DNA from: Escherichia coli
Lineage (GTDB): Bacteria > Pseudomonadota > Gammaproteobacteria > Enterobacterales > Enterobacteriaceae
DNA: 64,000 bases
Reading direction: 5' to 3' (one strand)
NCBI RefSeq assembly: GCF_003018255.1
Contig: NZ_CP027440.1
The number at the start of each line of letters is the position of its first letter. Positions within the stretch are counted from its first letter, which is position 1. Below the pieces are notes generated by a model. The model made no database searches and had not been told where the DNA came from. It saw only the letters and a list, made by a program, of their open reading frames with translations. Positions 14,663 to 62,171 of the stretch are shown one piece after another. The translations under genes were made by a program, and so were the position numbers.

Positions 14663-15562
14663 GTGGCGCTACTTATCATCACCACGATTCTGTGGGCCTT
14701 CTCCTTTAGCTTTTATGGCGAGTACCTTGCGGGGCACGTCGATAGCTATTTTGCAGTGCTGGTGCGCGTTGGCCTGGCGGCACTCGTGTTTCTGCCGTTT
14801 CTGCGTACCCGTGGCAATAGCCTGAAAACGGTTGGCCTGTATATGCTGGTGGGCGCGATGCAGCTCGGTGTGATGTATATGCTGAGTTTTCGCGCCTATC
14901 TCTACCTGACGGTCTCCGAACTGTTGCTGTTCACCGTACTGACTCCGCTCTACATCACGCTGATTTATGACATCATGAGTAAGCGCCGTCTGCGCTGGGG
15001 CTATGCTTTTAGCGCCTTGTTGGCGGTGATTGGTGCCGGAATTATTCGCTATGATCAGGTCACCGACCACTTCTGGACTGGCCTGCTGCTGGTGCAACTC
15101 TCCAATATCACTTTTGCCATCGGCATGGTGGGTTACAAACGCCTGATGGAAACTCGTCCGATGCCACAGCATAACGCCTTTGCGTGGTTCTATCTTGGTG
15201 CGTTCCTGGTGGCGGTGATTGCATGGTTTTTGCTGGGAAATGCGCAGAAAATGCCGCAAACCACGCTGCAATGGGGCATTCTGGTGTTTCTTGGCGTGGT
15301 GGCTTCCGGTATTGGCTACTTTATGTGGAACTACGGCGCGACTCAGGTGGACGCCGGAACGCTGGGCATTATGAATAATATGCACGTTCCGGCAGGGCTG
15401 TTGGTTAACCTGGCTATCTGGCACCAACAGCCGCACTGGCCAACGTTTATTACAGGCGCGCTGGTGATCCTGGCCTCACTGTGGGTGCATCGTAAGTGGG
15501 TCGCTCCGCGCTCTTCACAAACGGCAGATGATCGCAGGCGTGATTGCGCGCTGAACGAATAA
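14663..15562 (+). CDS. yigM: Inner membrane DMT-family transporter YigM (biotin transporter BioP)
   Basis: 299 aa polytopic membrane protein, GTG start; 3' end overlaps metR convergently. Confidence 0.85.
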
Positions 15563-16403
15563 ACGCTTCTGTAATCGGCTGACGCTGCTCGCCATCGCGC
15601 ACGGCGGCGTACAGTCGGCTCCACAAGCCTTCGCCCAGGGTTTTGGTGACCACCAGACCCTGGCGTTCAAAACTCTCCACCACCCAATGCGGTAGCGCAG
15701 CGATGCCCATCCGCGCGGCAACCATCTGAATCAACAACAAGGTGTTATCGACGCTTTTCAGTGACGGGCTAACGCCTGCGGGCTGAAGAAAATGCCGCCA
15801 GACATCCAGTCGGCTACGCTGCACCGGATAAATCAACAGCGTTTCGCTGGCGAGGTCTTCCGGCGTGATTCGCGTTTTCGCCGCCAGTGGATGGTCAGGT
15901 GCCAACACCAGACGCACTTCATAATCGAACATCGGCGAATAATGCAGGCCACTGCGCGGCAGAATATCGGAGGTCATCACCAGATCCAGCTCACCCTGCT
16001 GCAACGCGGGCTGCGGGTCAAACGTCACGCCCGATTTAAAATCCATCTCCACCTGCGGCCAGTTCTTATGGAAATTTTCTAACGCGGGCGTCAGCCACTG
16101 AATACAGCTATGGCACTCAATGGCAATGCGCAGGCGCGTCTGCTGCGGTTCATTGCAGGCTTGCAGTGCCTGGCTGATTTGAGGCAGCACCTGATTCGCC
16201 AGTTGCAACAGGATTTCTCCCTGCGGTGTAAACCGAAGCGGCTGGCTTTTACGCACAAATAGCCGGAAGCCAAGGCGTTGTTCCAGATCGCTAAACTGGT
16301 GAGACAGGGCGGATTGCGTTTGATGCAACGTCGCCGCAGCGGCTGCGAGTGAGCCGCAGTTCCGCAACGCTTGTAGCGTTTTCAGGTGTTTTACTTCGAT
16401 CAT
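15450..16403 (-). CDS. metR: LysR-family transcriptional activator MetR
   Basis: 317 aa; N-terminal LysR HTH ([20 protein letters not shown]); divergent from metE. Confidence 0.95.
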
Positions 16404-16520
16404 GAAAGTCCTTCACTTCGGCATGAATAATTTGCGCTTGAGGAATATACAGTAACCGCCAATTATGGATGTGTAAACATCTGGACGGCTAAATACTAAA
16501 AATTCCATAAGGGGCATATA

Positions 16521-18782
16521 ATGACAATTCTTAATCACACCCTCGGTTTCCCTCGCGTTGGCCTGCGTCGCGAGCTGAAAAAAGCGCAAGAGAGTTATTG
16601 GGCGGGGAACTCCACGCGTGAAGAACTGCTGGCTGTTGGGCGTGAATTACGTGCCCGTCACTGGGATCAACAAAAGCAGGCGGGTATCGACCTGCTGCCG
16701 GTGGGCGATTTTGCCTGGTACGATCATGTACTGACCACCAGTCTGCTGCTGGGTAACGTTCCGCCACGTCATCAGAACAAAGATGGTTCGGTAGATATCG
16801 ACACCCTGTTCCGTATTGGTCGTGGACGTGCACCGACTGGCGAACCTGCGGCGGCAGCGGAAATGACCAAATGGTTTAACACCAACTATCACTACATGGT
16901 GCCGGAGTTCGTTAAAGGCCAACAGTTCAAACTGACCTGGACGCAGCTGCTGGAGGAAGTGGACGAGGCGCTGGCGCTGGGCCACAAGGTCAAGCCCGTG
17001 CTGCTGGGGCCGGTTACCTACCTGTGGCTGGGTAAAGTGAAAGGTGAACAGTTTGATCGCCTGAGCCTGCTGAACGACATTCTGCCGGTTTATCAGCAAG
17101 TGTTGGCAGAACTGGCAAAACGCGGCATTGAGTGGGTACAGATCGACGAACCAGCGCTGGTACTGGAACTACCGCAGGCGTGGCTGGACGCATACAAACC
17201 CGCTTACGACGCGCTCCAGGGCCAGGTGAAACTGCTGCTGACTACCTATTTTGAAGGCGTAACGCCAAATCTCGACACGATTACTGCGCTGCCTGTTCAG
17301 GGGCTGCATGTGGACCTTGTACATGGTAAAGATGACGTTGCTGAACTGCACAAGCGTCTGCCTTCTGACTGGCTACTGTCTGCGGGTCTGATCAATGGTC
17401 GTAACGTCTGGCGCGCCGATCTTACCGAGAAATATGCGCAAATTAAGGACATTGTCGGCAAACGCGATTTGTGGGTGGCATCTTCCTGCTCGTTGCTGCA
17501 CAGCCCCATCGACCTGAGCGTGGAAACGCGTCTTGATGCAGAAGTGAAAAGCTGGTTTGCCTTCGCCCTACAAAAATGCCATGAACTGGCACTGCTGCGC
17601 GATGCGCTGAACAGTGGTGATACGGCGGCTCTGGCAGAATGGAGCGCTCCGATTCAGGCGCGTCGTCACTCTACCCGTGTCCATAATCCGGCGGTAGAAA
17701 AGCGTCTTGCAGCCATTACCGCCCAGGACAGTCAGCGTGCGAATGTCTATGAAGTGCGTGCTGAAGCCCAGCGTGCGCGTTTTAAACTGCCCGCGTGGCC
17801 GACTACCACGATTGGTTCCTTCCCGCAAACCACGGAAATTCGTACACTGCGTCTGGATTTCAAAAAGGGTAATCTCGACGCCAACAACTACCGCACGGGC
17901 ATTGCGGAACATATCAAGCAGGCCATTGTCGAGCAGGAACGTTTGGGACTGGATGTGCTGGTACATGGCGAGGCCGAGCGTAATGACATGGTGGAATACT
18001 TTGGCGAGCATCTGGATGGCTTTGTCTTTACGCAAAACGGTTGGGTACAGAGCTACGGTTCCCGCTGCGTGAAGCCACCGATTGTCATTGGTGACGTTAG
18101 CCGCCCGGCACCAATTACCGTGGAGTGGGCGAAATATGCACAATCGCTGACCGACAAACCGGTGAAAGGGATGCTGACGGGGCCGGTAACCATACTCTGC
18201 TGGTCATTCCCGCGTGAAGATGTCAGCCGTGAAACCATCGCCAAACAAATTGCGCTGGCGCTGCGTGATGAAGTGGCGGACCTGGAAGCCGCTGGAATTG
18301 GCATCATCCAGATTGATGAACCGGCACTGCGCGAAGGTTTACCGCTGCGTCGCAGCGACTGGGATGCCTATCTCCAGTGGGGCGTGGAGGCTTTCCGTAT
18401 CAACGCCGCCGTGGCGAAAGATGACACACAAATCCACACTCACATGTGTTACTGCGAGTTCAACGACATCATGGATTCGATTGCGGCGCTGGACGCAGAC
18501 GTCATCACCATCGAAACCTCGCGTTCCGACATGGAGTTGCTGGAGTCGTTTGAAGAGTTTGATTATCCAAATGAAATTGGTCCAGGCGTCTATGACATTC
18601 ACTCGCCAAACGTACCGAGCGTGGAATGGATTGAAGCCCTGCTGAAGAAAGCGGCAAAACGCATTCCGGCAGAGCGTCTGTGGGTAAACCCGGACTGTGG
18701 CCTGAAAACGCGCGGCTGGCCAGAAACCCGCGCGGCACTGGCGAACATGGTGCAGGCGGCGCAGAATTTGCGTCGGGGATGA
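16521..18782 (+). CDS. metE: Cobalamin-independent methionine synthase
   Basis: 753 aa; duplicated UroD-like barrel, C-terminal zinc-binding His/Cys/Glu region (HMCYCEF...); divergent from metR. Confidence 0.97.
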
Positions 18783-30868: not shown

Positions 30869-33111
<2,243 letters not shown>

Positions 33112-46585: not shown

Positions 46586-48127
<1,542 letters not shown>

Positions 48128-48195
48128 CCTTAAAGAAGCGTACTTTGCAGTGCTCACACAGATTGTCTGATGAAAATGAGCAGTAAAACCTCTAC

Positions 48196-48272
<77 letters not shown>

Positions 48273-48314
48273 AATTTGCACGGCAAATTTGAAGAGGTTT
48301 TAACTACATGTTAT

Positions 48315-48390
48315 GGGGCTATAGCTCAGCTGGGAGAGCGCCTGCTTTGCACGCAGGAGGTCTGCGGTTCGATCCCGCATAGCTCCACCA
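48315..48390 (+). tRNA. alaT: tRNA-Ala (anticodon TGC) in 16S-23S spacer
   Basis: ggggctatagctcagctgggagagcgcctgctttgcacgcaggaggtctgcggttcgatcccgcatagctccacca; G3:U70 Ala identity pair and TGC anticodon. Confidence 0.95.
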
Positions 48391-48564
48391 TCTCTGTAGT
48401 GATTAAATAAAAAATACTTCAGAGTGTACCTGCAAAGGTTCACTGCGAAGTTTTGCTCTTTAAAAATCTGGATCAAGCTGAAAATTGAAACACTGAACAA
48501 CGAAAGTTGTTCGTGAGTCTCTCAAATTTTCGCAACTCTGAAGTGAAACATCTTCGGGTTGTGA

Positions 48565-51468
<2,904 letters not shown>

Positions 51469-51567
51469 TTACAACGCCGAAGATGTTTTGGCGGATGAGA
51501 GAAGATTTTCAGCCTGATACAGATTAAATCGACATGTCATAACGAGACGTGTTGATAAAACAGAATT

Positions 51568-51687
51568 TGCCTGGCGGCCTTAGCGCGGTGGTCCCACCTG
51601 ACCCCATGCCGAACTCAGAAGTGAAACGCCGTAGCGCCGATGGTAGTGTGGGGTCTCCCCATGCGAGAGTAGGGAACTGCCAGGCAT
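51568..51687 (+). rRNA. rrfA: 5S ribosomal RNA
   Basis: tgcctggcggcc...aactgccaggcat, 120 nt. Confidence 0.97.
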
Positions 51688-60634: not shown

Positions 60635-60781
60635 GATTCGCCTGAACATGCCCTTTTTTCGTAAGTAAGCAACATAAGCTGTCACGTTTTGTGATGGCTA
60701 TTAGAAATTCCTATGCAACAACTGAAAAAAAATTACAAAAAATGCTTTCTGAACTGAACAAAAAAGAGTAAAGTTAGTCGC

Positions 60782-60890
60782 GTAGGGTACAGAGGTAAGA
60801 TGTTCTATCTTTCAGACCTTTTACTTCACGTAATCGGATTTGGCTGAATATTTTAGCCGCCCCAGTCAGTAATGACTGGGGCGTTTTTTA
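60782..60890 (+). ncRNA. spf: Spot 42 small regulatory RNA
   Basis: Sequence gtagggtacagaggtaagatgttctatctttcagacc... ending in intrinsic terminator gccgccccagtcagtaatgactggggcgtttttta matches Spot 42 as recalled; immediately downstream of polA. Confidence 0.9.
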
Positions 60891-61860: not shown

Positions 61861-62103
61861 ATAGAGCGAGGACGCTAACAGGAACAATGACTCAGGATGA
61901 GGGTCAGGAGCGCCAGGAGGCGAAGACAGAGGATTGTCAGGAAGATAAACGTCCGGAGACGTAATTAAACGGAAATGGAATCAACACGGATTGTTCCGGC
62001 TAATGGAAAAACAGGGTGTGTTGGCGGCCTGCAAGGATTGTAAGACCCGTTAAGGGTTATGAGTCAGGAAAAAAGGCGACAGAGTAATCTGTCGCCTTTT
62101 TTC
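61861..62103 (+). ncRNA. csrC: CsrC small RNA (CsrA-sequestering)
   Basis: About 240 nt non-coding stretch between yihA and yihI with many GGA-containing motifs (aggacg, caggaa, aggatga, caggag, aggagg, aggatt, caggaa...) and terminal hairpin aggcgacagagtaatctgtcgcc followed by ttttttc; ends approximate. Confidence 0.8.
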
Positions 62104-62171
62104 TTTGCTTGCTTTCTGTTAGATTCCGCCGCAAATCTATACTGAATAAAACGGCTAAAAGACGAACCATT

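Follow-up and report, generated by a model that had tools for sequence, protein, structure and literature searches.

The interval 16404-16520 of the window (by which we mean the whole stretch of Escherichia coli DNA analysed, 64,000 bases) is a 117-bp spacer between the divergent genes metR and metE. On the minus strand, metR (15450-16403) is an open reading frame for a LysR-type activator of 317 aa, matching the NCBIfam model NF011950 (MetR) over positions 1-317 of 317 with 741 bits, and its ATG, read as CAT, occupies 16401-16403. On the plus strand, the full-length open reading frame of metE (16521-18782) encodes the 753-aa cobalamin-independent methionine synthase, with matches to NF003556 (1193 bits) and TIGR01371 (1127 bits). 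An initial annotation had named 16404-16520 as the metR-metE intergenic control region; these coordinates are exact, and NF011950 and NF003556 identify the flanking genes accordingly. A search of the spacer against Rfam returned no RNA family, and a check of the spacer for small open reading frames found none that is credible. At its 3' end, metR is convergent with bioP (yigM), the two reading frames overlapping there by 113 bp (15450-15562), as annotated in K-12.

The predicted MetJ operator

Augustus & Spicer 2011 (PMC3228920, Table 3) give a symmetrised information matrix for MetJ sites, with which we scanned all 64,000 bases. By their thresholds, a site consists of at least two contiguous boxes in 8-bp register resembling AGACGTCT, each scoring at least one quarter of the consensus score and together scoring at least the consensus, 12.58 bits. 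A single site in the 64 kb passes. It lies at 16467-16490, carries no strand, and is a predicted MetJ operator of three tandem 8-bp metboxes totalling 21.06 bits. Box 1 (GGATGTGT, 16467-16474) is weak, at 4.47 bits, while box 2 (AAACATCT, 16475-16482) and box 3 (GGACGGCT, 16483-16490) score 9.34 and 7.25 bits. The initial annotation had suggested a matrix scan of this kind, which thus returns a significant MetJ site inside 16404-16520. It had also picked out the string acatctggacggct as similar to tandem MetJ boxes. That string is present at 16477-16490 and is true metbox DNA, but its register is off by 2 nt, as it starts inside box 2; and although the boxes do form a tandem array, they number three (starting at 16467, 16475 and 16483), with a weaker extra box upstream, rather than two.

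The operator is orthologous to the one already described. It sits in a methionine-regulon spacer, and its 24-mer is letter-for-letter the published E. coli site: the supplementary table of PMC3228920 gives the identical sequence for E. coli metE/metR, with three boxes and 21.08 bits, and lists the same site in K-12, CFT073, UTI89, APEC O1, IAI39 and E. fergusonii. In that table the distance from operator to metR start is 63 nt in every strain, and the distance to the metE start is 149 nt in K-12 and 30 nt in CFT073, UTI89, APEC O1, IAI39 and E. fergusonii. The geometry in the window (63 nt to metR, 30 nt to metE) is that of the latter group.

One alternative is that the metbox-like and TGAA strings arose by chance in AT-rich intergenic sequence and play no part in regulation. 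Every box departs from AGACGTCT at two or more positions, and when the double consensus AGACGTCTAGACGTCT was searched for across the whole window at up to three mismatches, no 16-mer matched. A natural operator is too degenerate for a search of that type, which is why the published matrix was used instead. By the matrix, shuffled windows contained 0.88 passing sites on average, but a site of 21.06 bits or more appeared in only 0.6% of shuffled 64-kb windows, or 0.8% when the spacer's own AT-rich composition was used, and in the real window the operator is the sole passing site. These statistics argue against a chance origin for the metboxes, and the MetR sites bear on the same question.

Predicted MetR sites, putative promoters and the regulatory model

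The sequence TGAAAGTCCTTCA (16403-16415) is the only perfect occurrence in the window of the pattern TGAANNNNNTTCA (TGAA-N5-TTCA). Its flanked form ATGAAAGTCCTTCAC (16402-16416, no strand) is likewise the only match in the window, at one mismatch or fewer, to the 15-bp MetR motif ATGAA-N5-TTCAT of Leyn et al. 2014, agreeing at 9 of the 10 specified bases. We refer to this predicted site as IR1; two bases of the metR start codon fall within it. A second predicted site, IR2 (ATGAATAATTTGCGC, 16423-16437, no strand), was read from the sequence, with 5/5 matches in its left half and 2/5 in its right half, and it abuts a -35-like hexamer of metE. The centres of the two sites are 21 bp apart. According to Oliver et al. 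2016 (PMC5002191), E. coli has two inverted repeats, of which IR1, with its centre at -63 from the metE start, is conserved and IR2, at -41, is less so. In the window, too, metR is divergent, and positions relative to the start site follow from identity with K-12. The two-site MetR model was shown experimentally in Salmonella and not in E. coli, where IR2 is without experimental support (PMC5002191). Identification of the two TGAA segments as the IR1 and IR2 described for E. coli is supported, both being predictions here. A TGAA-containing segment had been proposed earlier as a possible MetR site, and the perfect palindrome at 16403-16415 bears this out, except that there are two sites and not one.

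Taken singly, the palindrome is compatible with chance at the scale of the window, in which about 1.5 perfect copies of TGAA-N5-TTCA are expected per 64 kb. The expectation for 117 bp, however, is about 0.003, and the single copy falls within the same 117 bp as the metboxes. Moreover, both elements are described sites of K-12 and are kept in other species, including Pseudocitrobacter. Chance matching is in our judgment extremely improbable, and as an explanation it is already effectively refuted.

Placement of the promoters is more indirect. A generic stringent sigma-70 consensus scan reported neither of the two expected promoters, only one unconvincing plus-strand match (16402-16431), and hence we inferred the hexamer positions. 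Failure of such a scan to find the metE promoter is expected if that promoter is activator-dependent. The putative metE promoter (16438-16466, plus strand), assigned from the sequence and from the start implied by PMC5002191, would be a weak one and consists of TTGAGG at 16438-16443, a 17-nt spacer and AATTAT at 16461-16466. Transcription would start at 16471-16472 on the plus strand, given that the centre of IR1 plus 63 (16409+63) is 16472 and the centre of IR2 plus 41 (16430+41) is 16471; the published site positions used in this calculation come from secondary sources. For metR, a candidate promoter (16449-16477, minus strand), read from the sequence, has TTTACA at 16477-16472, a 17-nt spacer and TACTGT at 16454-16449. 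The metE and metR promoters are described as overlapping and divergent (PMC5002191). The candidate -35 hexamer of metR falls within the metbox array, and the metboxes span about -4 to +19 relative to the putative metE start. An 18-nt inverted repeat with 78% complementarity (16422-16439 / 16454-16471, centre ~16446) flanks the space between the divergent promoters; MetR site 2 forms one of its arms, and the metE -10 area lies within the other.

The model that fits this arrangement is established knowledge for metR-metE; as applied to the window, we infer protein binding, start sites and regulatory direction from published work and from the K-12 identity. MetR with homocysteine would bind the strong palindrome (16402-16416) and the adjacent weak site (16423-16437) touching the metE -35, and would thereby activate metE. 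The same binding would repress metR itself, because the MetR sites lie in the transcribed leader of that gene. MetJ with S-adenosylmethionine would bind cooperatively to the three tandem metboxes (16467-16490), and since these cover both the putative metE start and the candidate metR -35, one operator could turn off the pair under methionine-rich conditions. Transcription of metE from about 16471 would produce a mostly unstructured leader of about 50 nt with a good Shine-Dalgarno sequence.

Conservation of the control region

An alignment with K-12, as the initial annotation had recommended, shows the MetJ and MetR sites to be base-for-base identical. From within metR through the last metbox (16351-16493) there are zero differences; the shared elements include the 24-bp metbox site and its score, the 63-nt distance to metR, and both IR1 and IR2. 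To the left of this block lie 53 differences in 1407 nt, 43 of them in metR, and the first 548 nt of metE contain 21. Only one of the 43 nucleotide differences in metR changes an amino acid, such that the MetR protein is identical to that of K-12 at 316 of 317 positions. The earlier suggestion that methionine regulation of metE and metR is intact holds as far as MetR and the predicted cis elements are concerned, metJ being located outside the window. Taken together, the coding parts of metR and metE (15450-17068) are about 4% divergent from K-12, nearly all of it synonymous, and the control region between them is unchanged.

Across complete E. coli genomes, identity of at least 99% over 16200-16800 (601 nt) is seen in only 32 of 5425, with DETEC-S792 as the best match, indicating that the window carries a rarer coding haplotype. 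With a 120-nt query comprising the spacer, by comparison, the best match reaches 99% identity or more in 5379 of 5425 genomes, although in genomes with a long allele (see below) the match covers the first 90 nt of the spacer only. CFT073 and ST131 genomes match this query at 100%, and no spacer difference from them was detected. A match to the metR-metE junction is lacking in 1 of 5426 complete genomes; one copy was found on a plasmid record, and a few genomes carry the region twice.

Outside the species, we collected related loci with a pattern scan for the metR N-terminus, which gave 8 loci, Salmonella not among them; one Salmonella-like contig was obtained with the published metbox sequence. 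Only a few changes separate the control region of the window from that of E. albertii, E. whittamii, Escherichia sp. E1V33 and two species of Pseudocitrobacter; they fall in the -10 area, in the leader and, within box 3, at a single base. IR1 is unchanged in K-12, E. albertii, E. whittamii and Pseudocitrobacter, and IR2 has one substitution in Pseudocitrobacter.

Experimental characterisation of the MetR sites and of the shared MetJ operator was carried out in Salmonella enterica. The arrangement there is much the same, with a MetR palindrome beside the metR ATG, a second site, and three metboxes 63 nt from metR. Two differences stand out. The Salmonella boxes (GGATGTGT AAACATCC AGACGTCT) are nearer the consensus, at 24.18 bits, and they are followed by an ERIC element, which puts them 161 nt from metE; the window has no ERIC.

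From these comparisons we conclude that 16404-16520 is very probably the canonical divergent metR-metE control region of E. coli, in the ERIC-less form common to most strains, a reading based on sequence identity and statistics. The locus is already known, and there is nothing new in the control region. The window carries the textbook regulatory region in unaltered form, and the exact boundaries of its boxes are now fixed.

ERIC repeats and the metE leader

The spacer is 117 bp in the window versus 236 bp in K-12. The two sequences are identical through GGACGGCTAAA, beyond which K-12 is longer by ~119 bases and departs from the window in the final ~25 nt ahead of the ATG. The K-12 insert (1408-1528 of L001, our K-12 locus) is a 121-nt imperfect palindrome and a dispersed repeat, found in 39,926 places with a median of 8 per genome. 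It agrees with the ERIC2 primer at 17 of 18 positions and with ERIC1R at 15 of 16, in the expected back-to-back arrangement, and its features conform to the published description of ERIC/IRU elements (PMC2229807). Defining such an element as a ~127-bp imperfect palindrome with a core matched by ERIC1R and ERIC2 and several copies per genome, we find one in the K-12 allele and none in the spacer of the window; indeed, no ERIC core occurs anywhere in the 64 kb. The extra DNA of K-12 is an ERIC repeat, and the spacer of the window is the empty-site allele. The empty site (16493/16494, no strand) is the point at which, in alignments, K-12 and Salmonella carry the ~121-127-bp repeat. As this point is downstream of the operator and of the putative transcription start, the insert would fall within the metE 5' untranslated region. 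The ERIC and the altered ribosome-binding region account for the 149 nt, rather than 30 nt, between the K-12 operator and the metE ATG.

The K-12 allele differs from that of the window in two further respects. Its ribosome-binding region, AGAGGAAGAAAAAATG, is unlike that of the window (16491-16532, compared with 1529-1565 of L001), and codons 3-4 of its metE carry three synonymous changes (16529, 16530 and 16532), which are derived with respect to all short-allele outgroups. We considered whether the short leader might be a remnant of the right end of a deleted ERIC; the similarity is within that of shuffles (P ~0.23 versus K-12, ~0.56 versus Salmonella), and we set the idea aside as unsupported.

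With K-12 as the reference, the window could be viewed as truncated, a deletion having taken regulatory DNA and altered the control of metE. The ~119 bp of extra length in K-12, together with its different ribosome-binding region and codons 3-4, would be compatible with this. Yet the extra DNA begins past the last metbox, downstream of the putative start, so that the MetJ, MetR and promoter elements are all retained, and it is by every measure above an ERIC repeat. Nor is the short form exceptional: it is the majority form, seen in 3325 of 5425 complete E. coli genomes (61%), and occurs also in E. albertii, E. whittamii, E. fergusonii, Pseudocitrobacter and Enterobacter cloacae. Truncation is, we believe, highly improbable. 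The half of the spacer that appears to be missing in the K-12 alignment corresponds to a repeat in the K-12 leader and not to lost regulatory DNA.

K-12 itself carries the minority allele, its form being present in the other 2100 of the 5425 genomes. The long form is found in K-12, B and O157:H7, and the short form in CFT073, ST131 and ATCC 25922. Across the Enterobacteriaceae, the distance between operator and metE ATG tabulated in PMC3228920 is bimodal. Values of 28-30 nt are given for E. fergusonii and for two strains listed as Enterobacter cloacae (ATCC 13047 and SCF1), and values of 145-161 nt for Salmonella, Klebsiella, C. rodentium and Enterobacter sp. 638, with K-12 (149 nt) likewise in the upper group. 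The Escherichia outgroups (the short leader being present in E. albertii, E. whittamii and Escherichia sp. E1V33) and Pseudocitrobacter are short, and Salmonella, Klebsiella and C. rodentium are long. Insertion or loss of the ERIC on several occasions, or exchange between lineages, could each have led to this distribution. In the Salmonella-like contig (L011, 546-715), the ERIC has the same insertion point and orientation as in K-12 and is ~70% identical to it, as judged by eye. After it comes a ribosome-binding region resembling that of K-12 (AGAGGAAGTAAAATG; P ~0.02 versus shuffles), and the K-12 changes in metE codons 3-4 likewise resemble the Salmonella-like sequence. This likeness between the long alleles of K-12 and Salmonella could have come about by common descent, by lateral exchange or through a preference for this insertion site.

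MetE is among the most abundant proteins in minimal medium. In the window, the rest of its leader (16473-16520, plus strand) brings the total to ~50 nt from the putative start, and the Shine-Dalgarno sequence AAGGGG (16509-16514, plus strand) lies 6 nt before the ATG. Folding of the RNA corresponding to the leader and first codons (16471-16560) gave -6.3 kcal/mol, versus -12.85 kcal/mol for shuffled sequences (z = +2.8), and all 200 shuffles fold at least as stably as the native sequence. So open a fold would fit selection to keep the translation-initiation region accessible in a gene that is expressed at very high levels.

These properties raise the possibility that, under canonical control of transcription, the ERIC-less leader changes the post-transcriptional setting of MetE relative to K-12, through translation, mRNA stability or small-RNA pairing. 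The leaders differ in length (~50 nt versus ~169 nt in K-12), in Shine-Dalgarno sequence (AAGGGG-N6-ATG versus AGAGGAAG-N6-ATG) and in structure, that of the window being almost unstructured and that of K-12 containing the ERIC hairpin; in Yersinia, ERIC elements within transcripts alter mRNA stability (PMC2229807). On the other hand, both forms occur widely in nature and are apparently viable. Literature searches linking ERIC to metE found nothing relevant, and a search on pairing between FnrS and metE yielded nothing usable. We regard such an effect as possible, though on balance somewhat doubtful. It is an addition to the reading of the spacer as the canonical control region and not a competitor to it.

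More tentatively still, the leader with and without ERIC may represent an old two-state polymorphism, possibly selected or laterally exchanged, that sets different regimes of MetE translation or mRNA stability. The suggestion stems from the insertion point, orientation and similar ribosome-binding region shared by the long alleles of K-12 and Salmonella, and we think it rather unlikely to be correct in full. If it were, what is known of post-transcriptional control of metE in K-12 would be inapplicable to most E. coli. In practice, before results on the K-12 metE 5' untranslated region are applied to other E. coli, it should be checked which leader the strain carries.

Elsewhere in the window, Rfam matches were obtained at 31223-31474 (Erse small RNA, RF02757), at 46586-51685 (a complete rRNA operon with two tRNAs and StyR-44), at 60772-60890 (Spot 42) and at 61861-62114 (CsrC).
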